In this document: in pieces, positions 1-11,496 of the stretch
Position numbering within the stretch: position 1 is the stretch's first letter
How the letters are laid out: each line of letters opens with the position of its first letter
Virus record (IMG/VR): IMGVR_UViG_2541047847_000003
Coordinates: 1-11,496 of that record
From: a virus
Taxonomy: Duplodnaviria > Heunggongvirae > Uroviricota > Caudoviricetes
Reading direction: 5' to 3' (one strand)
Length of the DNA: 11,496 nt
Program-made: the position numbers and the translations under genes
Notes under the pieces: model-generated
The model's database searches: none
Seen by the model: the letters and a program-made list of their open reading frames with translations, nothing else
What the model was told of the DNA's origin: nothing

Positions 1-95
1 AGTTTGCTCCTGCCATAACGTGAAGAAGCAATGACCTGGTGGTCCGTGACTTCCCTACGCTGGCATTATCCAGATCAGGTGATACGGGTATTTCT
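1..95 (-). promoter_or_regulatory. thiM: 3' part of the thiM TPP riboswitch (aptamer 3' half plus expression platform); thiM start codon lies just beyond the left edge
   Basis: Reverse complement of 1..95 reads AGAAAUACCCGUAUCACCUGAUCUGGAUAAUGCCAGCGUAGGGAAGUCACGGACCACCAGGUCAUUGCUUCUUCACGUUAUGGCAGGAGCAAACU, which matches the well-studied E. coli thiM thi-box leader as I recall it. Confidence 0.85.
82..95. other. attL core: 14-bp ATACGGGTATTTCT, identical to the copy at 11083..11096
   Basis: Exact 14-bp direct repeat at both island ends; flanking bases differ on both sides (81 g vs 11082 a; 96 t vs 11097 c). The repeat lies inside the riboswitch sequence. Confidence 0.75.
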
Positions 96-160
96 TACTA
101 ATTACTTTTACCAGTTGATAATAAATAAGTTTTTAAGAACGCATAAATTAAAAACCTCAG

Positions 161-235
161 AACTGACCACACAACTGACCACACATTTTGTTGAAGCTCT
201 ACGAACAACGACGAACAATAACAAACAAAAGGGAA
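161..235. repeat. attL-proximal arm block: tandem AACTGACCACAC x2 followed by ACGAACAA-type repeats; homologous to 10929..10995
   Basis: AACTGACCACAC at 161..172 and 173..184. The roughly 75-bp block is about 80% identical (by eye) to the block beside int at the other end, in the same orientation. Confidence 0.6.
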
Positions 236-1134
236 ATTTGCTGGTGGTTTTGCTTAACCGTTATCATTTTTCGGCTATCCGTCATGAAGCTGGTGGATGA
301 TCACGGATAACCAGGCATCCACAGCGCCTTAAAAAGCTGAACCCGACAAACATTTCTGCTTATCGGGTCCGATCGCTCTTTCTGCTCGTGGCAGATGAGT
401 TTATTGGGAGAGGCGGAAACATTGTATCAGGCTATCCCCTTTCTGTGCTGATTTGCATAGTTGTATATAGCTGTGCGTCCACCAGACACGCAGGAATGGA
501 GTTTGTGAGGAACTATAAATCCTGCGCAAATTTTCCCGGCCCACTCAAATTGAGTTTTCCGAAAATATCAACGGCTTAGGCCAAAGCCCGAAAAAGGGCT
601 TTGTAAAAAATTAACCTAATACGGTCGCTTTAACCTACGGTAATCGTTCTGCTTCGGTGTGTGTCCCCTCTGCGGCCATCATGACCATGCCATAACAAAA
701 ACCCCATATTCGTGGTTTTTCTGTGTCGGGGCTATTCTGCTGTTGCCGTGCTGGTGGATATTCTCCGGTATGCGACTCCCCATATCGGCATCAGGCCCAC
801 CAGCGTGAAGCGTTTTTCATTTTTCGCGGGTATAAAAAATTGATGGGGCTGGCAGTCCGGAAGACGTCAGGGTACAGAGATTTGACCCGCCCCTCCCTGT
901 GCATAAGCACAATAAGTAACAGAAGGCGGAATTCCGCCCTCGGTACTCACATATGAGAAACGATATTTCTTCCACCGATACCCTTTATTTGGGTATCGCG
1001 AGTAAGCCCCAAAATCTGGGTGTTACTCTTACTACCCAAACTACGGGTGGTTTCCGTAGTTTCATGGTCGAGTTGCAGATCTGCAACTCACCCACCAGCC
1101 AACGCAATTTTGCGTTATCGGGAATATCAGGAAT

Positions 1135-1419
1135 CTACCGCCGCAACCGTTCCGGCTTCCTCCACTGGTAAGTATTTTTCGCGCTCTCCCTCCGTTGTTG
1201 AGAACGGCGACGGTATGCCAGCAACTCAAGGACTCTGATCCGTATGTCGCGCATATCCACGCCGTTAAGCTCGATACCGTCACGGCGCATCATCTCAGCC
1301 ACCACACGCGCGTAATTTTCGGCTATCACGCTGTCCGGCTGCGTGGCCTCCTGTTTGCTTGATGGTTGTTTGATTCCGGTAACGCGGCGGATTAATCCCA
1401 GCAATTCAGATTCTGTCAT
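1135..1419 (-). CDS. Small protein immediately downstream of terS; possible lambda gpFI-like packaging accessory protein
   Basis: ORF of 94 aa. N-terminus MTESELLGLIRRVTG resembles lambda FI MTKDELIARLRSLG, and VVAEMMRRDG resembles the FI C-terminal VAAEMTERG, both from memory. The C-terminal 40 aa are basic and low-complexity. Confidence 0.45.
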   Translation of the reverse strand: MTESELLGLIRRVTGIKQPSSKQEATQPDSVIAENYARVVAEMMRRDGIELNGVDMRDIRIRVLELLAYRRRSQQRRESAKNTYQWRKPERLRR

Positions 1420-1430
1420 AGTGCGCTACG

Positions 1431-1958
1431 TTACTTGTCTTTATTCGGCTGCAACTTATCCGGCACATTTCCGGTAGTTTCCATCAGGTAATCAGCCAGT
1501 ATCTGCGGGAGGTTGTCGTCAACTCCGGCACTGGCATTACAGGCTTTAGCCACTTCCTTTTTAAGTCCATCCAGCATAGCCGGAGTCATCTGTGGGAAGC
1601 GCCTTTGCATGGTAAGCGGCAGACTGTCCATGATAGATGAAATCTGACTCGCCAGTTTGGAAAGAACATACATACAAAACTCTGTATCAATAACGTCGCC
1701 GCGTTCGCGCTCGTTTTTAAGCTCCTGCGCCTCTGCCTGTGCTGTCAGTAATCTGATCCTGACGCGTAAAAGTTCATCGTCATCAATATCGCCCGTTTCG
1801 TTTGTAATCTGACTAATTGCATTGTTAACCCGATTATCTATTACACTGGCAACATCATAGAATGCCTCACGGCCCTTACGCTCGACGGGAATCACTCCCC
1901 ACTTATCAAACGCAGTGGCGCTTACACGGCAACTTTTTGCCATGTTTTTTTTGTTCAT
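1431..1958 (-). CDS. Terminase small subunit, lambda Nu1 family
   Basis: Translation aligns with lambda Nu1: RLLTAQAEAQELKNERERGDVIDTEFCMYVLSKLASQISSIMDSLPLTMQRRFP versus RLTRAQADAQELKNARDSAEVVETAFCTFVLSRIAGEIASILDGLPLSVQRRFP. N-terminal DNA-binding region is more diverged. Start chosen at the ATG giving MNKKN; the ORF track extends to 1982. Confidence 0.85.
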   Translation of the reverse strand: MNKKNMAKSCRVSATAFDKWGVIPVERKGREAFYDVASVIDNRVNNAISQITNETGDIDDDELLRVRIRLLTAQAEAQELKNERERGDVIDTEFCMYVLSKLASQISSIMDSLPLTMQRRFPQMTPAMLDGLKKEVAKACNASAGVDDNLPQILADYLMETTGNVPDKLQPNKDK

Positions 1959-2083
1959 CAGGTGCAATTTCATTGATACCACAACTTAATTACTGTTTCA
2001 GGTTGGTGTATTGATTGTATTTTTCTCTTCTTATTCATAGAGATAGAGCGAACAACAAAACCACCACCAGCCCCCTGAAAATG

Positions 2084-2148
2084 CTCATAAATAGCGAAAA
2101 CCCGCGAGGTCGCCGCCCCGTAGCCTGCCGGATCGCCGGAAAGGACCC
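2084..2148 (-). other. Lambda-type cos site (cosQ-like and cosN; 12-nt cohesive-end sequence at 2107..2118)
   Basis: Reverse complement of 2084..2120 is ACGGGGCGGCGACCTCGCGGGTTTTCGCTATTTATGA, identical to the lambda cosN junction and left end. 2119..2148 matches the lambda right-end cosQ region at about 27 of 30 positions. Lies about 130-150 bp upstream of terS, as in lambda. Confidence 0.85.
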
Positions 2149-2174
2149 GCCAGCCAGAACGGGCCCTAATTTCA

Positions 2175-2558
2175 TCAACCAATCAACTTATAGCGACCAT
2201 CCCGTGCATTGCGACGTACACGCTCAATCTTGAGGCATAGCGCCGCATCTGGCTTTTTGGGGACAGGTACGCGGCAATATTCAGAAGCTCGAGGAATATT
2301 GTTTATCCAGTCGATCACTTCACTTAAATACCAGGCCTTACGCCCTTCCGTAACCTGTACGCGTTCGGGGAACTCTCCACGAGCCTCAAGGTTTAGCAAT
2401 GTGCGACGGCTAAGGGTAGTAAGTTCCATCACCTGATTCATATCAACAAGGCGTTCACTTAAACGCATTTTGTCAGCAATAGCCTTTAATTCCTCTACTG
2501 CTGGATCCGGATACATCATTTCGGCAATTGGCTTAAGGTCATTGTAATGATTCTGCAT
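2175..2558 (-). CDS. AlpA/Vis-family HTH protein (second copy), 127 aa
   Basis: Central segment LTTLSRRTLLNLEARGEFPERVQVTEGRKAWYLSEVIDWI matches the AlpA-type HTH pattern. GGGGGA Shine-Dalgarno 4 nt upstream of the ATG; sits between the decoration gene and cos. Confidence 0.65.
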   Translation of the reverse strand: MQNHYNDLKPIAEMMYPDPAVEELKAIADKMRLSERLVDMNQVMELTTLSRRTLLNLEARGEFPERVQVTEGRKAWYLSEVIDWINNIPRASEYCRVPVPKKPDAALCLKIERVRRNARDGRYKLIG

Positions 2559-2569
2559 TGTATCCCCCT

Positions 2570-2911
2570 TTACACACGAGCCAGCGGCTGAACAGAAATA
2601 CCTGAGCCAACAAACGCGGCAACCTTTGCCGACAGTTCTCTTACAGACTCAGGCCAGTTCAGAGCATCAACATTTAAAACACCTGTCTTATAAACCTGTG
2701 CCTGTGTTTTTTTCGCTGTGTCGATTTGTACAGCGGAAACATAAACCGCTTTGCCTGCGCTCGTTCCATCCCATACCACTAGCGCACCAGTTGCATCTTC
2801 CTGCATCAGTGGCGTAAACGCAGGTATTACCCCTTTATTGGCTGAAAATATCCCCAGCGTAGTAACCAGTGCTTCAGTGCCAGACATGAGTTCAGTGTAA
2901 TGAGTAGCCAT
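2570..2911 (-). CDS. Head decoration protein, lambda gpD-like
   Basis: 113 aa. FTPLMQEDATGALVVWDGTSAGKAV parallels lambda gpD [25 protein letters not shown]; similar length. GGGGGAG Shine-Dalgarno 9 bp after the MCP stop. Confidence 0.8.
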   Translation of the reverse strand: MATHYTELMSGTEALVTTLGIFSANKGVIPAFTPLMQEDATGALVVWDGTSAGKAVYVSAVQIDTAKKTQAQVYKTGVLNVDALNWPESVRELSAKVAAFVGSGISVQPLARV

Positions 2912-2920
2912 TGCTCCCCC

Positions 2921-3967
2921 TTAGCCAATGCGAACGGTAACAAAACGATTGATGCGGGCCGGTATTGGCTGTGGTGCTGAATGTGTCTGCACATATTCAA
3001 TAGCCGGATCACCAGGCACAATATAGTTTTTCGGTGCAAGTTCGGCTTTAGTCAGCCCCATCCGAATTAGCTCCGGATCCTGAATACCGCCATAAGCGAC
3101 AATCCCCTGAAGAGCCGTATTGCCAAGCACCATCAAATCAGGATCAAGGAAATATTTTTCAGTTCCGTCCTCGTCGGTATAACGCCCGCTGTAAACAACA
3201 ATCGCAACATCGCCCATATACCCTTTAAAACTCACCGAATCACCAAGGTCTTTAAGGGCCGTTTCCAGTTCGGAATTAGAACCTCGACGGGTATCCAGAG
3301 CCTCTTTTACAGCTCTGAATGAGCGGTATTTTTTCCATACATTGCCGCCCATAATAATGATATTAGTGACTCCCTCACTAAATTCTGCGTAGCTCTCAAT
3401 ATCATCATTTGGATCAAAAGATCCTTTATCCTTACCTGACCACTCAGCACCGCCAGACTGAGTGATGATATTTTGTGGTTTAATATTCCAGTCCAGTTCA
3501 TAACGTTCAATACCATCGCCCTCAATGATATTTTTCCCCGTTGTGATTGCCTGAACAGCAAGCCATTCAATACGTGCACGTATAGCTTTAGCCTGATTTA
3601 CAATCGCCTGTTTAACTTTAATATTACGCGCCCCAAAAGCATTGTATTGTTCAGGTGATACACCAGCAGGGCGCACAGCTAACTTATTTGGATCAATGCT
3701 GCTTTTCGGTTTCATATAGCCAGGGCGAATTGTTTTTGATTCGTATCCCTCATCTCGTGAAACTTTACTGCCCACCATAGGAGAGCAAAACGCCGCGATC
3801 GGGATATTTGGATCGTCGATCGTATCAAGAATAATGTCTCTCGATTCAAACATTACCGAGCGAGTGAAAAACAAACTGGTAAACAACGCATTTAATTTTT
3901 TTTGCACATCTTCAGCATTAGCCACCTGCACAAGCTGTGTAGGCGAATATAAATCAACCATACTCAT
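2921..3967 (-). CDS. Major capsid protein, lambda gpE family
   Basis: Long collinear similarity to lambda gpE, for example NIITQSGGAEWSGKDKGSFDPNDDIESYA and AVKEALDTRRGSNSELETALKDLG and GDVAIVVYSG. Start set at MSMVDLY (lambda begins MSMYTT) with AAGAGG just upstream; the ORF track start at 4048 is probably an upstream extension. Confidence 0.9.
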   Translation of the reverse strand: MSMVDLYSPTQLVQVANAEDVQKKLNALFTSLFFTRSVMFESRDIILDTIDDPNIPIAAFCSPMVGSKVSRDEGYESKTIRPGYMKPKSSIDPNKLAVRPAGVSPEQYNAFGARNIKVKQAIVNQAKAIRARIEWLAVQAITTGKNIIEGDGIERYELDWNIKPQNIITQSGGAEWSGKDKGSFDPNDDIESYAEFSEGVTNIIIMGGNVWKKYRSFRAVKEALDTRRGSNSELETALKDLGDSVSFKGYMGDVAIVVYSGRYTDEDGTEKYFLDPDLMVLGNTALQGIVAYGGIQDPELIRMGLTKAELAPKNYIVPGDPAIEYVQTHSAPQPIPARINRFVTVRIG

Positions 3968-4132
3968 CCTCTTTACATTCATTACAAATAATTGTGAATA
4001 TATTCTATTACCGATGTCTGCTATGCGAATACATGCAACCAAGTGCAATGTTGTATAAAATCTGCCGTGACAACTTCAGTGCTGATAATTCGTGTTAATG
4101 TATTTACTTCCTTTGGTCGGGATTTATGTAGC

Positions 4133-4171
4133 ATGCCGGAAAATCTATTTTCTTCCGGCATTTTTTTATTT
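4133..4171 (+). terminator. Intrinsic-terminator-like hairpin with T-run on the plus strand
   Basis: ATGCCGGAA (4133..4141), 11-nt loop, TTCCGGCAT (4153..4161), then TTTTTTTATTT. On the minus strand the hairpin has no U-run after it. Confidence 0.45.
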
Positions 4172-4178
4172 GCAGAAT

Positions 4179-4601
4179 TTAAAACGGTATATTATCGCCG
4201 TACGGATCATCATTCCCCGACTGTTGTTTTGCCCTGTTCAGTGCGTCAGTAGCCTGGCCCTGTTGACCTTTTTTGCCGCCCGGTCGCGCCGTTCTGGCAC
4301 TGATTACACTGTCTGCGATAACCTGCCAGCCCTGCCGCGTTTCGCCGTTCTGGCCTGTCCACTGGCTTACCTGCATGTTACCCGCCACGCTCACCAGTTC
4401 GCCTTTGTGGTGTTTTGCCAGTGCGTCGGCCTGTCTGCCAAACGCCAGGACGGATAACCACATCGTCGCCGTTCCGTCATCTGCCTGGCTGCACGGAAGT
4501 GGGACCGCCATACTCGCCATCGTCATTTGTGTACCCTTGCTGGTGGTCTTTAACTGCGGGTCAGCCACCAGCCGCCCGTAAGCCGCTATCTGTGCTGTCA
4601 T
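4179..4601 (-). CDS. Single-stranded DNA-binding protein (SSB-like)
   Basis: 140 aa with an OB-fold-like pattern (WLSVLAFGRQADALAKHHKGELVSVAGNMQVSQWTGQNGETRQ), a Gly/Gln-rich linker and a C-terminal DDPYGDNIPF resembling the SSB DDDIPF tail. Confidence 0.7.
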   Translation of the reverse strand: MTAQIAAYGRLVADPQLKTTSKGTQMTMASMAVPLPCSQADDGTATMWLSVLAFGRQADALAKHHKGELVSVAGNMQVSQWTGQNGETRQGWQVIADSVISARTARPGGKKGQQGQATDALNRAKQQSGNDDPYGDNIPF

Positions 4602-4843
4602 GCTGTCTGCTCTCCGGTTTTAACGTTGATGGTTGTCACCTGTTCCGCTTCGGCAATCTCCCGTTCTGTCAGCGTGGCAAAGTTTGCAGCTGCCGTTGTC
4701 ATGAATGAGCTAATCAGTTCGGGATGTGCTTTCGCATATCCTTCCCCGGCGTTGCGGTCGATGATTTTTATCGACACCCTTAACCAGTGTTCCGTCAAAT
4801 CAAGGGCGTGCGATTGTGATTTTTTTGTGTGCTTCGCTGTCAT
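4598..4843 (-). CDS. Hypothetical protein, 81 aa, translationally coupled to ssb
   Basis: ORF whose stop overlaps the ssb start by 4 bp (ATGA); no recognisable motifs. Confidence 0.45.
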   Translation of the reverse strand: MTAKHTKKSQSHALDLTEHWLRVSIKIIDRNAGEGYAKAHPELISSFMTTAAANFATLTEREIAEAEQVTTINVKTGEQTA

Positions 4844-4895
4844 AGGCTTTATCTCACAGCAGTAAATTAAAATTTTTGCGTTTTAACCCTTCACC

Positions 4896-5116
4896 TGTTC
4901 ACCTTTTGATATTTTATCTTTTAATTCATAATGTTAAGGGGTGAACAGTTTCACAAAAACTATTCACCAACTGTTCACCACTGTTCACCCTTGAAGCTCA
5001 ATAAACAATCAAAAAGGTGAACAGTGAATAGTTTGGTGAACAGTTCATAAATAACTGTTCACCCTATAACATACTGATACAAAAGATATTTATGACAGGG
5101 TGAACAGTGGTGAACA
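4896..5116. repeat. Origin-like iteron cluster: about 10 copies of TGTTCACC/GGTGAACA in both orientations with AT-rich spacers (P4 ori/crr type)
   Basis: TGTTCACC at 4896, 4972, 4982, 5056; GGTGAACA at 4940, 5016, 5035, 5099, 5109; variants at 4961 and 5024. Immediately downstream of the alpha-like gene. Confidence 0.85.
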
Positions 5117-5130
5117 GTTATTCCATAAGT

Positions 5131-6948
5131 TTAATTTTTGCTATCGTCATTAGTGACCGATACACATGATGGCATCCAGTCTTCTGATTCCTCCGTCAGT
5201 GTCACGTTTGAACGCAAACCGTGCTTCGTTTTCCGTTTCATATACTCCCTGCCATATTCCGCCATTGCCCCCGGCATATCTTTACCGAAGCGCGTCAGTG
5301 TTACAGGTTTACCAAACCCATGTGCCCTCATATAAGCCAGATAGGCATGATAGAGATACCTGCGTGGGCTGAATGGCACAATTTCAGCATTACCCACTAA
5401 CAGGCCATCACACATTACCGACGCCATGAGATAGCCGCAGAAGTCCACCAGCGAATCCCCCTCTCGCTTTATCGCCAGTGCTTCTTCAGATTTCTGCTGC
5501 TCATATAACAGGCGTCTGGCTTCGTCCTGGTCAGCAAACCGTGTAAGCAGATGGCGAATCACTACCGCCAACTCACCTTCTATTTTTTCCGCCAGCATTG
5601 GATCGCGTTCGTTCTCCGGTACAACTTCCGAAAAATTGAATATCACCCGACGACGTGAGATCCCCCCGCTGCGGTCACTGAATGACATGGCGTTATTGTT
5701 AACCGCCAGCACTACTGCCGGAATACGCGTTGAGTAGGGGGCTTTGTGTTTCGGGTCAATTGCCACCTTGTCACCGCCTGTAATGGCCTTAATTCCTGCC
5801 CCATCACCAGCGTAGCGGGTCATATCCGGCATGATAATCAGCGAAAAGCCAACCACTAACGCGCGTTCCCTTGCATCTTCCAGCGCCTTCATGCTTGCCG
5901 ATACTGTGTTGGCCTTACCCGCCAGCATGGTGCAAATCTCCGCCATCACGCTTTTACCACTTCCCCCTGGACCTGTTACCTCAATGAATAACTGCCAGTC
6001 GTACCGGTTCGCCAGCACCATGAATAATGCAGCCAGTACGCGATCCGCCTTGCGGTCATTCTCAGCCACCGAACGGCGTAACCACTTCCAGAAATTCGGC
6101 GCATGTGTTGCCAGCGTTTCCCCCTCTGCTGGTGGGCTGAAAGGTAATTCACTGGCAATTAACAACCAGTCGTTTTTGTTATGCTCCCGAAAATTACCTG
6201 TTCTGGTATCAAATACCCCGTTACTGAATCCAATCAGGTTACGGGCTGTATTCCCCATTACAGGCAAACTTAACTTCATGGTATCGACCGCCGATTTAAT
6301 GGCGTTCTGCGAATAGCTGATCTCTGCATCAATGAAAATCTGCGCCATAGCTCGCTGTAATTCTTTATCCTGTACTGGCTCCCATACAACGCCGTTGTAA
6401 TGGTGAACAGTGTCAGAGTCAGCATGAATCGCCAGTTCACCGCCATAATGTGCCAGGAGAACTTCGCCGCGTTGACTTGCTCCCATCTGGTTAAGCGCCA
6501 GTGATGAAGCGTTATCGTCTTTTACCCGCTCTTTTTTCTTTACAGGCAGTTCAACTACCTTTTTCTTTTCCGCCAGCTCTGCCCGTTCACGTTCCAGATA
6601 TTCGCGCCAGTTCTCCCGTTTCTGGCTGTGCATTCCTTCAGGGTAATAATCAGCATCCCTGACACCTGCCGCTGCCAGTTTCTGCCCGATGGTATTAACA
6701 AGCCCCGGACGCAATAACCCCGCCTGATAGAGACGCACGCGATAGCGTCCGTCCGGTACGATTTGCAGGTTGTCCAGTTCGGCAAGTTGTTGCTCTCCAA
6801 GCCAGACAGGAGGCACGTTATCGCCAGCCAGTCGCCCGTCCTGTTCCTGCCACTGCTTCGCATGTGCCCACGCATCACTACCCGCAAAAATGATGACTTC
6901 CGTCATTTTGTCACGCGGCTGGTGTTTTAAATTTGGCGCTTTTTTCAT
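5131..6948 (-). CDS. P4 alpha-like replication protein (primase/helicase family, D5-type P-loop NTPase)
   Basis: Walker A GPGGSGKS and a Walker B-like hydrophobic stretch; adjacent TGTTCACC iterons. Start set at the ATG giving MKKAPNL (GGAGAGAG upstream); the ORF track start at 6963 is a GTG. No primase catalytic motif was identified by eye. Confidence 0.8.
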   Translation of the reverse strand: MKKAPNLKHQPRDKMTEVIIFAGSDAWAHAKQWQEQDGRLAGDNVPPVWLGEQQLAELDNLQIVPDGRYRVRLYQAGLLRPGLVNTIGQKLAAAGVRDADYYPEGMHSQKRENWREYLERERAELAEKKKVVELPVKKKERVKDDNASSLALNQMGASQRGEVLLAHYGGELAIHADSDTVHHYNGVVWEPVQDKELQRAMAQIFIDAEISYSQNAIKSAVDTMKLSLPVMGNTARNLIGFSNGVFDTRTGNFREHNKNDWLLIASELPFSPPAEGETLATHAPNFWKWLRRSVAENDRKADRVLAALFMVLANRYDWQLFIEVTGPGGSGKSVMAEICTMLAGKANTVSASMKALEDARERALVVGFSLIIMPDMTRYAGDGAGIKAITGGDKVAIDPKHKAPYSTRIPAVVLAVNNNAMSFSDRSGGISRRRVIFNFSEVVPENERDPMLAEKIEGELAVVIRHLLTRFADQDEARRLLYEQQKSEEALAIKREGDSLVDFCGYLMASVMCDGLLVGNAEIVPFSPRRYLYHAYLAYMRAHGFGKPVTLTRFGKDMPGAMAEYGREYMKRKTKHGLRSNVTLTEESEDWMPSCVSVTNDDSKN

Positions 6949-7244
6949 TTCTGCTCTCTCCACGCGGCAATCATGTTTTTCAGTTCCTGTAGTTTTTTAT
7001 CCACATCCACACGTGACACATGGTTATTTCTGGAAGTCGGGATTTCCCGCCGGAATCTGCAAATAAAGATCTCCACGTTCAGCGAACTAAGAAATGAATA
7101 GCCATCACGAATAAAATACACACGGTCAAACATCAGTTCTTTTACCGTTACTCTGTTACCGTTCTTATCCAGATAAATAGCGCCGGGGATAATTTTGGGG
7201 TGTGCATAACCGCTGGCAGTCAAGCCAGATAAATATGTTCTCAT
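6945..7244 (-). CDS. Hypothetical protein, 99 aa, translationally coupled to the alpha-like gene
   Basis: Stop overlaps the alpha start (ATGA); no recognisable motifs. Confidence 0.55.
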   Translation of the reverse strand: MRTYLSGLTASGYAHPKIIPGAIYLDKNGNRVTVKELMFDRVYFIRDGYSFLSSLNVEIFICRFRREIPTSRNNHVSRVDVDKKLQELKNMIAAWREQK

Positions 7245-7250
7245 GATTAT

Positions 7251-7571
7251 TTATCCCCGATTTGAATCAGTATTCGCTTTCTTTATGGCATTTAATGCAT
7301 CTGTGGCATTTTCAATGGTGCACCGTAACGAAATATCAAACTGCCCAAGCATTGCCAGTAACAAACCGATATTACCCATATCAATGCGCATAGCCTTTTC
7401 GTCATAGTCCTCATTTTCTGACGCATGCCACATCAGACTACCAATTGACGCAACAGCCATTGATATATTGTCAGTAGCCCCATCCGCAGCGGAATAAACC
7501 TTTTTAGCAATATCATGCTCACAGTTAAAATGCGGATTAATCAGGTACTGGTAATTTGACATATCAGGCAT
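7251..7571 (-). CDS. Hypothetical protein, 106 aa
   Basis: ORF in the same operon; its start overlaps the stop of the upstream 67-aa ORF (ATGCCTGA). Confidence 0.55.
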   Translation of the reverse strand: MPDMSNYQYLINPHFNCEHDIAKKVYSAADGATDNISMAVASIGSLMWHASENEDYDEKAMRIDMGNIGLLLAMLGQFDISLRCTIENATDALNAIKKANTDSNRG

Positions 7572-7767
7572 GGCACACCCCCTGACGAATACGGGCGGCG
7601 AATACCATCACGCAGCCAGCCGGGGATTGCTGGCGTGCTTCCTGTTCGCTGGTGGCCACGATGTGAATCACGCGCGGTTGTGCGGTGCTCAGGGCGATAA
7701 AACGCCAGATGTATTTATTCAGGTCGTGCGAGTCCCGCCCTTGCGGGTGTGTGGTATGATTTCTCAT
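7564..7767 (-). CDS. Hypothetical small protein, 67 aa, first gene of the replication operon
   Basis: Internal ATG of the 320-aa track ORF, preceded by GAGG; the sequence upstream in that frame looks non-coding. Stop is coupled to the next gene. Confidence 0.45.
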   Translation of the reverse strand: MRNHTTHPQGRDSHDLNKYIWRFIALSTAQPRVIHIVATSEQEARQQSPAGCVMVFAARIRQGVCHA

Positions 7768-7863
7768 AGCTACCTCGATACGCTTTCTATCGTTGGTGGT
7801 TAGAAGCCCGGTTAGTGTTAGCGCACTGCCGGGTTTCGTCGTTTCTGCACCTTGCATCAACAA

Positions 7864-7917
7864 GGTGTTGAACACCAATTTAAGCCTAGGTGTTAAACAC
7901 GTCAAGTGTTGAACACT
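7864..7917. promoter_or_regulatory. Three operator-like inverted repeats (GGTGTTGAACACC, GGTGTTAAACAC, AGTGTTGAACACT) in a divergent promoter region
   Basis: Repeats at 7864..7876, 7889..7900 and 7905..7917. The third overlaps a candidate -35 (TTGAAC) placed 17 bp from CATACT for the plus-strand gene. Confidence 0.6.
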
Positions 7918-7966
7918 TATTTTTTTTCCTGCATACTGCATTTGTTTTTTGTAAGGGGTACACAAC

Positions 7967-8146
7967 ATGGCGACAAAAGCAGTAAACGCAAAATCACAAA
8001 CAGTTGCGGCAAGGGTTCCGCATGAAGTTATGAACAATGTTGAGGCGGTAAAAATGCCTGGTGAAAGTACAGGGCAGTTTGTAACAGCAGCATTAAAGCG
8101 AGAAGTTGAATACCGCCAGCGTCGCAAGGCCAAAGAGCAGGAGTAA
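7967..8146 (+). CDS. Small ribbon-helix-helix-like protein, 59 aa; candidate repressor
   Basis: Below the ORF-track length cutoff. AGGGG Shine-Dalgarno 8 nt upstream. Pattern QTVAARVPHEVMNNVEAV...GESTGQFVTAALKRE fits a beta-strand/helix/helix RHH layout. Confidence 0.5.
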   Translation: MATKAVNAKSQTVAARVPHEVMNNVEAVKMPGESTGQFVTAALKREVEYRQRRKAKEQE

Positions 8147-8203
8147 CCATCACCAGCGCCGTGGTGCGGTGAACTGTGGCGCACAGGGTTACAGGTATCT
8201 ACG

Positions 8204-8383
8204 ATGACTGACAAATCATTAAAGAAATTATCCTCATCCAAGAAAAAACAACGCAAAAATGCGGTAAACGAACATGAACCGGAGAGATTCGCACCATGTG
8301 CGTTTGTCCTTGAGAAGTACCTTAAAGAGTATTCTAGGAAAATACGCTCATTGCAGGCATGGCAGCGAATCGAGCCAGACTGA
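8204..8383 (+). CDS. Hypothetical small basic protein, 59 aa
   Basis: ORF found by hand downstream of the RHH-like gene and before the plus-strand terminator; weak Shine-Dalgarno. Confidence 0.3.
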   Translation: MTDKSLKKLSSSKKKQRKNAVNEHEPERFAPCAFVLEKYLKEYSRKIRSLQAWQRIEPD

Positions 8384-8447
8384 TAGCATTGCCCACCAGC
8401 CAACAACCTGGTATTCTGGATATGCTCAAGTTTAGTGTTATGCCACT

Positions 8448-8477
8448 GGCGACCGCCCTTGGTCGCCTTTGTTTTAT
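8448..8477 (+). terminator. Rho-independent terminator (plus strand)
   Basis: GGCGACC, loop GCCCTT, GGTCGCC, followed by TTTGTTTTAT. Confidence 0.6.
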
Positions 8478-8494
8478 GTGTCATAGCTCCCCCC

Positions 8495-8719
8495 CTACGC
8501 TGCCTTACCTGAATTAACGCGGTCACGGCTTTGCACCCAGTCCATAACTTCGGAAAGCAACCAGCCTACAGAACGCCCCCCAAGATTACGGCGAGACGGA
8601 AAGCCCCCTTTCTTCTCCAGTTCGTAGCGTGTAGTACGGCTGACGCCTGTTAACTTACGACATTCATCTTCACGAATTACGCGATCTGTTAGTGATTGAA
8701 ATTGTGTATTTTGATTCAT
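8495..8719 (-). CDS. alpA: AlpA-family transcriptional regulator / excisionase-like HTH protein
   Basis: 74 aa; RKLTGVSRTTRYELEKKGGFPSRRNLGGRSVGWLLSEVMDWV matches the AlpA/Vis-type HTH pattern; GAGGG Shine-Dalgarno. Confidence 0.8.
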   Translation of the reverse strand: MNQNTQFQSLTDRVIREDECRKLTGVSRTTRYELEKKGGFPSRRNLGGRSVGWLLSEVMDWVQSRDRVNSGKAA

Positions 8720-8822
8720 AAAAACACCCTCGAACGTAACCGAACAAGGGCATCTTATTTACCATAGCAGTTGGTGCAATATTGGAAAAATAAACTTTAT
8801 TCTAATTTATCGTTCTCCATGA

Positions 8823-9677
8823 TTAATTTTCATTAGATAACATTTTTCTTATTTTTTCTAAAGAATCGCTGCGCATTATTTTTTCTAAGAAGGGTTTTAC
8901 AGTCTGAGCAATAGCAAAGGTGTCCTTTTCACCATCAGGATACAAAGATACGGCAAGCACCCCTAATGAAATTTTTCTATCTGTAGACAACTCCCAAGAT
9001 AATAAGTCAATTAATGGGATTATCTTATAATCAATAATTTTACGTCGTATGCTCTCCCAACTTCCTGCAATTGGTTTGTCTGGCTCAACAATTGAAAGTT
9101 CACTACGCCATTTTGGTAATAGTTTTGTAAACGCTTCAATCAACTCATCATCTCTGTTATGTAGTAAGTCAACAGAAACAAGCATATTATCTAATGTATC
9201 AGAAAGGAGATTCACTGGTTCACGCATCACAGCCCAAAACATCCCATTATCTTCTGATATTAAACTTCCAACCATCTCATTATCTATGATGATTGGTTTA
9301 TCCTTCCAATATCCTCTTTCCGCAGTCAGTTTATTAATCATTGATATATCAAACCTTGTTACAGGTTTAATTCCATCATCATAACTTAGCTCAATTAACT
9401 TCGGCTGCACTTTATGGTCATATTCTTTTTGTTTATCACAAAACCAATCGTCTTCTTTCAGCTCTCCAAATGGATCCCCATAATTATTATGCAACGGGTA
9501 TTCAGCACCAAACATAAAACCATATTCAGGCATCTCAGAATGTTTCATTGTTAAATCATCTTGTCGCCAATATAATTGGCGAAATAGATCTTTATCCGAC
9601 AAGTTTTCTAGGCAATCATATTTGCCTAAATCAAATGACTTTGGTAAATCTTTTTTACTATTTACTTTTTTCGTCAT
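8823..9677 (-). CDS. Hypothetical 284-aa protein, AT-rich cargo gene immediately downstream of int
   Basis: Long ORF whose start overlaps the int stop by 4 bp. Visibly more AT-rich than the neighbouring genes (not computed). No motif I recognise. Confidence 0.7.
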   Translation of the reverse strand: MTKKVNSKKDLPKSFDLGKYDCLENLSDKDLFRQLYWRQDDLTMKHSEMPEYGFMFGAEYPLHNNYGDPFGELKEDDWFCDKQKEYDHKVQPKLIELSYDDGIKPVTRFDISMINKLTAERGYWKDKPIIIDNEMVGSLISEDNGMFWAVMREPVNLLSDTLDNMLVSVDLLHNRDDELIEAFTKLLPKWRSELSIVEPDKPIAGSWESIRRKIIDYKIIPLIDLLSWELSTDRKISLGVLAVSLYPDGEKDTFAIAQTVKPFLEKIMRSDSLEKIRKMLSNEN

Positions 9678-10894
9678 TGTATCCCTCTCAATATCACAAT
9701 ATTTTCATTATATCCTGCAATCATATCAAGACGCTCAACCCATAGATGCAGTGCGTCCCGTTTCGCCTGCAAATAGCGTGAATGGTTATAGGTTTTTTGC
9801 TGACCTGGCATCTGATGCGCTGTGATGTGCTCCACGATATGCGGATCGACACCTAAATCATTCAGCATAGTTGTAAACGTGTGTCGGAAATCATGCAGCG
9901 TCCAGTGTTCCTGCTTAAGCCGCTTATGCGCATTTCGTCCATATTGCGCCACCGTGGTATCTTTTTTCAGTTCGCCGAGTAATAACCCAGTGTGTGCGTT
10001 TTGCTCCACCAGCTTCTGAATGAACGGCAAAATACCATCAGGAATAGGTCGGAATATTGTTACCTTCGTTTTGCTGTGCTCTTTTGGCACTGTCCACAAC
10101 ATTTCTTTCAGATCCCATTCTTTGATCTCTGAAAGTCTGATCTCTGCCGTTCTGCACCCGAACACAATTAACAAGCGCATTAACGCACTGTAATAGGGAG
10201 CGAACACATCACCATCAATAGCGCGTAGAATTTCTTTTAGTTCGCTGTTGCTGTGCACTCTCTCGCGGATTTCTGCTCTCTTACCCACATCAGTAACGAT
10301 CAAATCGTCCAGGGCGTTGCTAAACGCGTAGCGCCGCCTGCGGCAAAACTTTAGCGCCTGTTTGCATGTCTGCATGACATGGCCCGCTGCTACTGGTGCT
10401 TTTTTTCGTACGCGGTCAAAACATGCGATCCACTGCCTTGTATCACACTTATCAAGGGGAATTGCCCCGATATGGCAAATGATGTGCTTATCCATACGCT
10501 GCACCAGCTTTATGTAATCTTTGCGGTTATCCTTCGCGTATTCCTCCAGCCAGTAGTTAATCGCTTCCTTCACCGTAACGGGTTTTAGTGCTTCCTGTAC
10601 TGTGGCGCACAACTCATACCGAGGGTTTTTACCCTCAGCCAGCCATGCCCGGCACTGTGTTCGCTTTTCCCTTGCAGATTTCAGCGACAATTCCGGGTAA
10701 GCCCCCAGCTTTAACCGCTCTGCGGCAACCTCACGGCCTCCCGTTCGGTACCGGAAATACCAGGTTAATTTACCTCCCTTTGAGTGTTTAATCTCCAGCC
10801 CGCCCCCGTCGGAGTAAAAACGTTCTTTTTCTGCCTGGACAGCCACCAATTTTTTTAACGTTGAATCGCTCAGTTTGTTTAGTGCTTTTCCCAC
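9674..10894 (-). CDS. int: Tyrosine recombinase, P4-type integrase family
   Basis: 406 aa. N-terminal arm-binding-type region (GGKLTWYFRYRTGGREV...LGAYPELSLKSAREK); C-terminal catalytic motifs HDFRHTF and YNHSRY; GTG start. Confidence 0.9.
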   Translation of the reverse strand: MGKALNKLSDSTLKKLVAVQAEKERFYSDGGGLEIKHSKGGKLTWYFRYRTGGREVAAERLKLGAYPELSLKSAREKRTQCRAWLAEGKNPRYELCATVQEALKPVTVKEAINYWLEEYAKDNRKDYIKLVQRMDKHIICHIGAIPLDKCDTRQWIACFDRVRKKAPVAAGHVMQTCKQALKFCRRRRYAFSNALDDLIVTDVGKRAEIRERVHSNSELKEILRAIDGDVFAPYYSALMRLLIVFGCRTAEIRLSEIKEWDLKEMLWTVPKEHSKTKVTIFRPIPDGILPFIQKLVEQNAHTGLLLGELKKDTTVAQYGRNAHKRLKQEHWTLHDFRHTFTTMLNDLGVDPHIVEHITAHQMPGQQKTYNHSRYLQAKRDALHLWVERLDMIAGYNENIVILRGIQ

Positions 10895-10928
10895 TATCAG
10901 ATCCTCTTTTCAGTCCTCCAGCCTCAAA

Positions 10929-10995
10929 AAACTGACCACACAACTGACCACACATTTCGCTGAAACTCGGCAAACAACAACGAACAGCAACAAAC
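10929..10995. repeat. int-proximal arm block: tandem AACTGACCACAC x2 plus CAACAACGAACA-type repeats; homologous to 161..235
   Basis: AACTGACCACAC at 10929..10940 and 10941..10952, about 30 bp upstream of the int start. Confidence 0.6.
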
Positions 10996-11082
10996 GAGAA
11001 AGCCAATTAAATCATTGTATATCAAACATATACACAAACAATCACGAACATCCCAGAACTACAAAAAACACTAAATGAGAAA

Positions 11083-11096
11083 ATACGGGTATTTCT
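11083..11096. other. attR core: ATACGGGTATTTCT
   Basis: Identical to 82..95; continuous on its right with chromosomal thiM leader sequence. Confidence 0.75.
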
Positions 11097-11127
11097 CAGC
11101 CTTCACAAAGAAGGGCACCCCGAGTCG
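11083..11127 (-). promoter_or_regulatory. thiM: 5' part of the thiM TPP riboswitch aptamer, separated from its 3' half by the island
   Basis: Reverse complement reads CGACUCGGGGUGCCCUUCUUUGUGAAGGCUGAGAAAUACCCGUAU, the 5' half of the thiM aptamer including the conserved CUGAGA element. Confidence 0.8.
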
Positions 11128-11223
11128 TTTGGTTGCGATAATAAATCGCAGAGGAGGATGGTAATGTCCAGCGCACGCGTTGTAAACGGGGAAAAACGGC
11201 GGTATTACAATAACGTTGTGAAA

Positions 11224-11496
11224 TTATTTGATATAAGAATCCAGCACCTTCAGAACGACATCCAGATCTTCTTCTCGTTTTAGCTCATCCCCCTGGTGAA
11301 CGATGTGTTCCGTCAGATGGCCTTTAATCACTTCCCGCATCAGACCGTTTACCGCGCCACGGATAGCAGCAATCTGTTGTAAAACTGCAGCGCATTCATG
11401 CGGTTCGTCGAGCATTTTCTTGAGCGCCACGACCTGGCCCTGAATCTTACTGGCACGCGCTTTCAGTTTCTGTTTATCACGGATTGTATGAGACAT
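11224..11496 (-). CDS. rcnR: Ni/Co-responsive transcriptional repressor RcnR (CsoR/RcnR family)
   Basis: 90-aa translation [61 protein letters not shown]... matches E. coli RcnR as I recall it; complete CDS ending at the window edge. Confidence 0.85.

Follow-up and report, generated by a model that had tools for sequence, protein, structure and literature searches.

How an integrated phage satellite keeps its replication operon silent, and how it leaves that state, is the question raised by a short region of IMG/VR virus record IMGVR_UViG_2541047847_000003. Positions 1 to 11,496 of this record, the whole stretch that was analyzed and is called the window here (11,496 nucleotides), are by sequence an integrated phage satellite of the EcCICFT073- and P4-related kind. 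Within it, a small gene encoding a ribbon-helix-helix (RHH)-like protein of 59 amino acids (aa) faces a leftward operon that ends in a primase gene, and three copies of one inverted repeat lie between the two. The founding paper on Gram-negative phage-inducible chromosomal islands (PICIs) left it unclear whether these elements possess a global repressor (PMC6092414). The answer that we favor, with a probability of roughly 0.78, is that the 59-aa protein binds the three palindromes, silences the replication operon from its leftward promoter (PL), and limits its own synthesis, and that the satellite activator AlpA bypasses this control.

Exact copies of the palindrome GTGTTNAACAC (GTGTT-N-AACAC) were found at positions 7865-7875, 7890-7900, and 7906-7916, between the 59-aa gene and the leftward operon, just as the original prediction had described and placed them. 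Allowing one mismatch revealed no further site in the window; at that tolerance 0.43 sites would be expected, and at least three sites occurred in 1 of 200 shuffled sequences. With two mismatches allowed, additional sites in the window were no more frequent than chance. The three operators, designated O1, O2, and O3 from left to right, have centers 25 bp (O1 to O2) and 16 bp (O2 to O3) apart, and O1 and O3 are perfect 13-bp palindromes. All three fall on or beside elements of two predicted promoters (Table 1). PL was the sole promoter-like site with at least 9 of 12 consensus matches on the minus strand between positions 7500 and 8800, and its −35 box is kept across genera. The −35 box of the predicted rightward promoter of the RHH operon (PR), TTGAAC, lies inside O3, bearing out the proposal that the third repeat overlaps a candidate −35 of the RHH gene, and the PR −10 box, CATACT, aligns with a TATACT that is conserved in at least 20 related loci.

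Several features indicate that the 59-aa open reading frame (ORF), proposed earlier as an RHH-like gene, is a real gene. Its product scored 59.7 bits against the NCBIfam model YlcI_YnfO_N (NF041551; cutoff of 30; E value of 2E−16) over residues 9 to 50, and the gene is annotated as YlcI/YnfO by RefSeq in hundreds of E. coli genomes. It is preceded by a Shine-Dalgarno sequence, AAGGGG at 7953-7958, which is conserved together with the ATG. Substitutions at codon positions 1, 2, and 3 of the RHH frame, counted over 74 sequence pairs, numbered 682, 372, and 1702, respectively. Conservation of position 2 exceeded that of position 1 in the RHH frame but not in the antisense frame, and the ratio of synonymous to nonsynonymous differing codons was 1172:879 in the RHH frame versus 985:1037 in the antisense frame. 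Searched at the DNA level, 5426 complete E. coli genomes included at least 671 with the RHH module, and the E. coli copies found were all chromosomal. The protein belongs to phrog_949, which has no assigned function, and its family is small: of 1.84 billion representatives searched exhaustively by profile, 79 clusters belonged to it. A tblastn search of 50,697 phage records with the RHH protein as query returned no match, leaving P4 and the lambdoid phages without a close relative, and no functional study of the YlcI/YnfO family (phrog_949) was found in the literature.

The 59-aa protein is predicted to have the strand, helix, turn, helix topology of RHH (MetJ/Arc/CopG) proteins, including the G-x-S/T/N turn that caps helix B, and the best matches of its structure model were RHH proteins, the top ones being RHH antitoxins. 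Among 32 aligned relatives, M1-A2-T3, N7, K9-S10, R16, H19, G32-E33-S34, Q37-F38, E46, and R50 were kept; G32-E33-S34 was invariant and T35 nearly so, with residues 11 to 15 variable. Profile alignment placed the protein in register with Arc and CopG through the strand, helix A, the G-x-S/T turn, and helix B, such that residues 12 and 14, which vary, and R16, which does not, align with the base-contacting Q9, N11, and R13 of Arc. Residues 11 to 16 (QTVAAR) are the predicted DNA-reading strand. Pfam searches with the 59-aa protein and the 32 relatives identified no RHH family, and the subthreshold matches to CB_ParB_C, PSK_trans_fac, and DUF7557 were hints only.

The pairing of protein and operators was examined across related loci. 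The comparison set comprised 31 loci of other genera retrieved via the protein, 7 more retrieved via exact protein look-ups, and the model satellite EcCICFT073; 27 loci from about 15 genera (Escherichia, Edwardsiella, Pectobacterium, Kosakonia, Xenorhabdus, Proteus, Salmonella, Klebsiella, Serratia, and others) were analyzed. Repeated sites were found at about −101, −76, and −31 from the RHH ATG in 25 of the 27. The position of O1 (about −101) carries a cognate site in these 25 loci, and that of O2 (about −76) is kept among relatives, where it adjoins a CGTCAA that is conserved and complements the leftward −35. The third site stands in most families at about −31, just after the rightward −10 box, unlike O3 of the window; one locus (L004) has a third site at both positions, and some relatives with the residues QTIAA have the −31 site only. 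Read from this comparison, the third site has moved in the lineage of the window from an ancestral place after the rightward −10 to the −35 box.

The positions of the sites on both promoters were constant, and the sequence of the sites varied with RHH residues 11 to 15, giving at least 12 cognate pairs. Residues QT[VLI]AA were paired with operator GTGTTGAACAC, [KR]KLEA with GTGTCAGCCAC, KRFDV with GTGTCGGACAC, KKIDV with GTGTCAGACAC, QSLKS or QALKA with GTGTGGCCCAC, QKLQ[AT] with GTGGACTCCAC, QKMSA with CTGGCACCCAG, QKIQA with CTGGATTCCAG, and QSVTA with GTGTAAGACAC. For two signatures, KKLEA (E. coli) and KRFDV (Salmonella), the operator was predicted before the DNA was retrieved, and both were found. 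The relationship also held in reverse: when viral contigs were searched with the operator pair alone, 50 loci were recovered, and a protein with QT[VIL]AAR was encoded about 102 nucleotides downstream in 48 of them. The other two contigs (L058 495-527 and L089 3464-3496) have tandem GTGTTGAACAC palindromes without an RHH gene of the YlcI/YnfO family; one is high in G+C and the other AT-rich, and their contexts are unrelated to the satellite.

Mosaic loci separated the RHH protein from its neighbors. In two pairs of loci (L034 and L036, L039 and L040) the RHH protein and operators were identical, and AlpA was 22 to 26% and the product of the first leftward gene 26 to 31% identical. Conversely, AlpA of L034 was 95% identical to that of EcCICFT073, and the Icd-like protein of the window 90% identical to its EcCICFT073 counterpart, with different operators in each case. 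Between the window and L039 the C-terminal half of the RHH protein was 97% identical and the N-terminal half 53%, and the operators again differed. By these comparisons, operator type follows the N-terminal half of the RHH protein only, and neither its C-terminal half nor AlpA nor the Icd-like protein. In the window, the diverged block extends from 7867 to about 8055 and comprises the operators, the promoters, and RHH codons 1 to 30. Identity to L039 and L040 was 50 to 65% within this block and 90 to 100% in its flanks. The mosaic block suggests that specificity is exchanged as a cassette. Taken together, covariation and mosaics provide strong indications that the 59-aa protein is the cognate binder of the three repeats.

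Immediately left of O1, the plus strand carries a candidate cis-antisense small RNA with two hairpins (Table 1), which is complementary to the ribosome-binding site, start codon, and leader of the icd-like gene. Folding of this region gave −36.5 kcal/mol for the plus strand (z score of −4.8) and −20.5 kcal/mol for the minus strand (z score of −1.0), and many G-U pairs of the RNA become A-C mismatches on the opposite strand. In an alignment of 21 sequences, 96.5% of cells were paired and compensatory changes were observed at 15 of 26 pairs, values reached by 0 of 500 shuffles. At the distance of the putative extended −10 promoter of this RNA, a TAnnnT box was found in other families despite their different N-terminal peptide on the opposite strand. 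The RNA is like SymR in that two hairpins lie, in antisense orientation, opposite the start codon and ribosome-binding site of a facing gene, and the loop of hairpin 2, GUGUUAGCGCAC, resembles GUGUUGGCGCAC of SymR. Its match to SymR (Rfam RF01809) scored 32.8 bits, below the gathering score of 61, so that by the Rfam rule it is not a SymR member.

The antisense RNA had been missed by the original prediction, as had a long eta-like frame that overlaps the entire switch. This frame starts 10 nucleotides after the alpA stop codon and runs antisense through ORF2 (the second gene of the rightward transcript) and the RHH gene, through both promoters and the three operators, and, being in frame with the icd-like gene, ends as the Icd-like protein. 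It was open in 22 of 25 loci and is 428 codons long in EcCICFT073. Inside the RHH gene, the eta-like register had 0 stops in 24 of 24 sequences, and the other two registers had 59 and 74. In the 200-nucleotide intergenic stretch, the eta-like frame had 0 stops in 16 of 19 loci, and the other two frames had 95 stops each. The eta-like and RHH codons share third positions. The idea that the open antisense frame reflects a codon-for-codon register was rejected, since the RHH gene freely uses TTA, TCA, and CTA codons. Pfam searches found no domain in the eta-like frames of the window, EcCICFT073, and vB_KppS-Ant, and a Bro-N assignment that had been suspected by eye was unsupported, the Pfam domain being absent. 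One deposited satellite record annotates the eta-like frame as a coding sequence; since the RHH gene lies antisense inside a conserved open frame, annotations of the region conflict over the coding strand.

Because the repeats cover both the leftward promoter and the gene's own promoter, repression combined with autoregulation is the natural reading of the locus, and the autoregulation that had earlier been raised as a possibility agrees with the place of O3 on the PR −35. In the proposed mechanism, the RHH protein would be expressed from PR in the lysogen and would bind each palindrome, presumably as a dimer. Binding at O2, in the spacer, and at O1, over the start site, would shut PL, which would otherwise drive the icd-like gene, orf106, and the DUF4222 and primase genes, and binding at O3 would limit synthesis of the RHH protein itself. 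The RHH protein would be the immunity or maintenance repressor of EcCICFT073-type satellites, in the role that the CI RNA has in P4. The antisense RNA, made constitutively, would probably add a second layer by masking the icd-like ribosome-binding site on PL transcripts.

Induction would probably proceed without inactivation of the repressor. EcCICFT073 carries an orthologous module, with RHH gene WP_000190587.1 and cognate operators. Its AlpA activates ORF3 and its own gene, and overexpression of AlpA alone, in a nonlysogen with no helper, led to excision and runaway replication of EcCICFT073 (PMC6092414). Since AlpA alone induces a carrier of the module, inactivation of the RHH repressor by a helper is probably not needed. 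Helper-induced AlpA may instead turn on the promoter upstream of alpA, and the resulting transcript would be translated continuously through the eta-like frame, across the switch. By virtue of this continuous translation, the AlpA transcript would evade the antisense RNA as well as the repressor bound at PL, and transcription converging on PR would lower the supply of repressor. For P4, a passage of PMC10111431 that cites Forti 1999 describes immunity-specific termination being prevented when eta is translated from the late promoter. As a lead only, the P. aeruginosa protein called AlpA, a possible homologue of satellite AlpA, is an antiterminator (PMC7969949).

A number of observations weigh against repression by the RHH protein with a bypass by AlpA. 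The bypass route is drawn from the analogy with P4 and from one published overexpression experiment. PR has only 8 of 12 consensus matches, below the threshold of the promoter scanner. The 16-bp spacing of O2 and O3 places them on opposite faces of the helix, so that cooperative binding is not obvious, and the sites are degenerate in two loci (L007 and L009). As to the fold, the hhalign comparisons with Arc (E value of 0.008) and CopG (E value of 0.012) had a probability below 5% and were not significant, a profile search of the Protein Data Bank (PDB) with the 59-aa protein yielded nothing meaningful, and a Foldseek search of its model against the PDB yielded no match. The monomer model lacks the N-terminal strand, residues 1 to 18 having a predicted local distance difference test (pLDDT) score of 57 to 67. 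Finally, the loci are phylogenetically related, so that the counts of covarying families overstate their independence; the mosaics are cleaner evidence than these counts.

If the 59-aa ORF were only a shadow of the long minus-strand frame, not itself translated, with the palindromes serving as RNA or terminator elements, the annotation of the long frame only in one deposited record would be accounted for; bias at third codon positions, which both frames have in common, is by itself no means of telling them apart. Such a shadow is extremely improbable given the greater conservation of position 2 than of position 1 in the RHH frame only, the ratios of synonymous to nonsynonymous codons, the match to a curated family that also occurs outside the satellite context, the conserved ATG and Shine-Dalgarno sequence, the RHH motif, and the covariation. 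Binding of the palindromes by AlpA or by the Icd-like or eta-like product, with the small ORF incidental, is very improbable: AlpA is a DNA-binding regulator and PHROGs labels the Icd-like family "transcriptional repressor," but operator type is independent of both AlpA and the Icd-like protein, the PHROGs label appears to trace to an old "cI gene product" ORF in the P4 record, and P4 immunity is an RNA (PMC10111431). The P4 ORF from which the label appears to be derived lies at L046 8168-8584; its alignment with the C terminus of the Icd-like protein was weak (26% identity; E value of 0.077). We give almost no credence to an antitoxin paired with ORF2, for which the palindromes would be merely an autoregulatory operator. 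RHH antitoxins were the top structural matches, a small gene does follow the RHH gene, and a relative of ORF2 is named "RelE" by one source; however, ORF2 is confined to Escherichia and absent from most RHH loci, most of which have no downstream plus-strand gene, ORF2 matches no family of toxins, the RHH protein lacks a long C-terminal tail with which to bind a toxin, and O1 and O2 lie on the promoter facing the opposite way.

Two further explanations accept the RHH protein as a repressor and differ in what it is for. The original prediction had proposed a master-repressor switch analogous to Stl, in which the RHH protein would silence the whole island and a helper protein would have to bind and inactivate it. 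The switch itself was supported by the cognate pairing, seen in covariation and mosaics, and by the location of repeats on PL. Like stl, the gene is divergent from the replication operon, and members of the family are found in lambdoid prophages as well (K-12 YlcI shares 41% identity with the satellite protein encoded at L029, a Klebsiella locus with the same switch context), which makes cross-talk with helper-encoded relatives conceivable. The Stl analogy did not hold up as well. AlpA overexpression alone induces EcCICFT073 with its orthologous module (PMC6092414), the protein has no similarity to Stl, and since no operator-like sites occur elsewhere in the island, it would control only PL and PR, not int or alpA. 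We consider helper-relieved control of the whole island quite unlikely. A governor of copy number or timing, in which the RHH protein and antisense RNA throttle the primase operon after induction or in a plasmid state, would share the two-layer logic of CopG/RNA II and CopB/CopA, would act on an operon that ends in a primase and an iteron origin, and would obtain a dose-dependent set point from autoregulation. Against this role, at least 12 specificities moving as cassettes are a signature of immunity or heteroimmunity, and the E. coli copies found were all chromosomal; it appears unlikely.

An extension of the RHH repressor with AlpA bypass is doubtful but possible, namely, that a three-layer overlapped toggle has replaced CI-RNA immunity of the P4 kind in a large clade of Enterobacterales satellites. 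The RHH gene, the three operators, and both promoters would then all lie inside a translated, alpA-adjacent eta-like frame, which selection might keep free of stops. In the lysogen, repressor and cis-antisense RNA would jointly silence PL; upon induction, ribosome-covered read-through from AlpA-dependent transcription would ignore both layers, and convergent transcription would stop repressor synthesis.

The remainder of the window is consistent with its assignment as a satellite, and its features are collected in Table 1. The plus strand of the satellite holds just two small genes, the RHH gene and ORF2. Homologues of ORF2 are restricted to Escherichia, and one is present and annotated in EcCICFT073; since the gene is absent from most genera, it is placed outside the core module. 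Its structure model, two helices with a pLDDT of 71, was uninformative. About 11 copies of an iteron, ACTGTTCACC, in both orientations, were observed at 4890-5125 in the gap after the primase gene, and this cluster probably serves as the satellite's origin of replication. An ORF on the minus strand at the right edge of the window (11224-11496) resembles the chromosomal regulator FrmR; if it is FrmR, the right end of the satellite lies between 10894 and 11224. At the left edge, a match to the thiamine pyrophosphate riboswitch (35-122, minus strand) was subthreshold (34.4 versus 54.3 bits), and the 5′ half of the model aligned poorly. No tRNA gene was found within the window, nor was the int-alpA RNA of Rfam, which matched above threshold in several related satellites (L003, L005, L007, and L022) about 2.5 to 3 kb right of the RHH gene.

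Table 1. Location of the switch elements, genes, and other features of the window, from right to left; empty cells indicate that no value is given
Feature	Position	Strand	Description
Integrase gene	9674-10894	−	
DUF6387 gene		−	
alpA	8495-8719	−	PF05930, E value of 5E−16; helper-responsive activator known in such satellites (PMC6092414)
Intrinsic terminator	8448-8477	+	Ends rightward transcript; 8-bp stem with 6 G-C pairs, then T run
ORF2	8204-8383	+	Second gene of rightward transcript; 59-aa basic protein; phrog_21027, E value of 2E−30
RHH gene	7967-8146	+	YlcI/YnfO family, 59 aa; predicted repressor
PR	7909-7937	+	Predicted rightward promoter of RHH operon; TTGAAC at 7909-7914, 17-nucleotide spacer, CATACT at 7932-7937
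O3, AGTGTTGAACACT	7905-7917		Overlaps PR −35; abuts PL −35
O2, GGTGTTAAACACG	7889-7901		Inside PL spacer, between −35 and −10
PL	7877-7905	−	Predicted leftward promoter; −35 TTGACG at 7905-7900, 17-nucleotide spacer, −10 TAAATT at 7882-7877
O1, GGTGTTGAACACC	7864-7876		Directly downstream of PL −10; covers predicted start site near 7870
Eta-like frame	7564-8484	−	306 codons; ATG at 8484, 10 nucleotides after alpA stop; strong Shine-Dalgarno, GGGGGGAG
Antisense RNA	7767-7850	+	Candidate cis-antisense small RNA; two hairpins
Antisense RNA promoter	7752-7760	+	Candidate extended −10, TGgTATGAT
icd-like gene	7564-7767	−	First gene of leftward operon; NF033153, 71 bits; annotated in RefSeq
orf106, then DUF4222 gene		−	Leftward operon, from icd-like side to primase
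P4-type primase gene	5131-6963	−	Last listed gene of leftward operon
Single-stranded DNA-binding protein (SSB) gene		−	
Major capsid, head-decoration, and small terminase genes		−	

RHH repressors that act on divergent promoters are a classical theme. New here are the role proposed for YlcI/YnfO proteins and their presence in Gram-negative satellites, together with specificity that diversifies in the manner of a cassette and a gene nested antisense in a conserved frame; no paper describing an RHH switch in Gram-negative satellites was found in the literature. If the proposed repression is true, the "missing" global repressor of Gram-negative PICIs, EcCICFT073 included, would be identified. Work on these islands since the founding paper has centered on AlpA, and the module offers a concrete, testable repressor candidate. 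A first function would likewise be provided for the K-12 y-genes ylcI and ynfO and for family phrog_949. Nature would also have supplied at least 12 orthogonal pairs, each made of a 59-aa repressor and its 11-bp operator, and the table of residues 11 to 15 against operators would amount to a specificity code for a minimal repressor, of use in studies of RHH recognition and as orthogonal parts. A putative repressor gene lying antisense in an open frame that selection maintains is an unusual case of overlapping information.

Among known systems, P4 has the most similar layout. In both, the switch lies between the gene for AlpA or its homologue Vis and the primase operon, the early promoter (PL here, which corresponds to PLE of P4) is embedded in a long frame beginning right after the AlpA homologue (eta, after vis in P4), and a small first gene is nested in that frame (icd-like here, kil in P4). 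Translation from an upstream promoter is also proposed to override immunity in P4, as stated in a passage of PMC10111431. The satellite differs in having a protein repressor gene on the opposite strand, three operators, and a cis-antisense RNA, and P4 has no relative of the RHH protein. The Rfam models C4 and isrK, which represent the CI RNA and seqA, matched P4 itself with 74.9 and 60.8 bits but matched neither the window (at E values up to 1) nor 24 RHH-bearing loci.

As with the master repressors Stl of SaPIs and Rpr of PICIs, the RHH gene is divergent from a satellite replication module, with operators in the intergenic region and predicted silencing. Stl and Rpr, however, are large helix-turn-helix proteins with no homology to the 59-aa RHH class. 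The control exerted by the RHH protein would be limited to PL and PR, and derepression by a helper is not indicated, AlpA alone being sufficient in EcCICFT073 (PMC6092414). The y-ome proteins YlcI (prophage DLP12) and YnfO (prophage Qin) of K-12, which have no assigned function, belong to the same NF041551 family as the satellite protein, and as a relative of the satellite repressor, YlcI is predicted to be an RHH DNA-binding protein. The prophage copies differ in lying beside cos and nohD and not in a switch, and no comparable repeated palindromes were seen upstream of K-12 ylcI. That gene (L033 5252-5446) points away from the DLP12 cos site and nohD.

In plasmids pMV158 (CopG and RNA II) and R1 (CopB and CopA), control of the replication operon combines a small repressor, which acts at the promoter, with a translation-blocking antisense RNA. 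The satellite would share these two layers, and with CopG the RHH class, but its repressor gene is divergent from the target and not cotranscribed with it, the element is integrated, and specificity has diversified. Arc and Mnt of the P22 immI region are very small RHH repressors with operators on closely spaced divergent promoters and with negative autoregulation. The 59-aa protein resembles them as a small RHH protein with candidate operators on divergent promoters, its predicted reading strand aligning with Q9, N11, and R13 of Arc, in a single comparison whose similarity was not significant (E value of 0.008). It differs in its target, which would be a replication operon where that of P22 is an antirepressor, and in its operators, which are three separate palindromes where P22 has one tetramer-bound operator.

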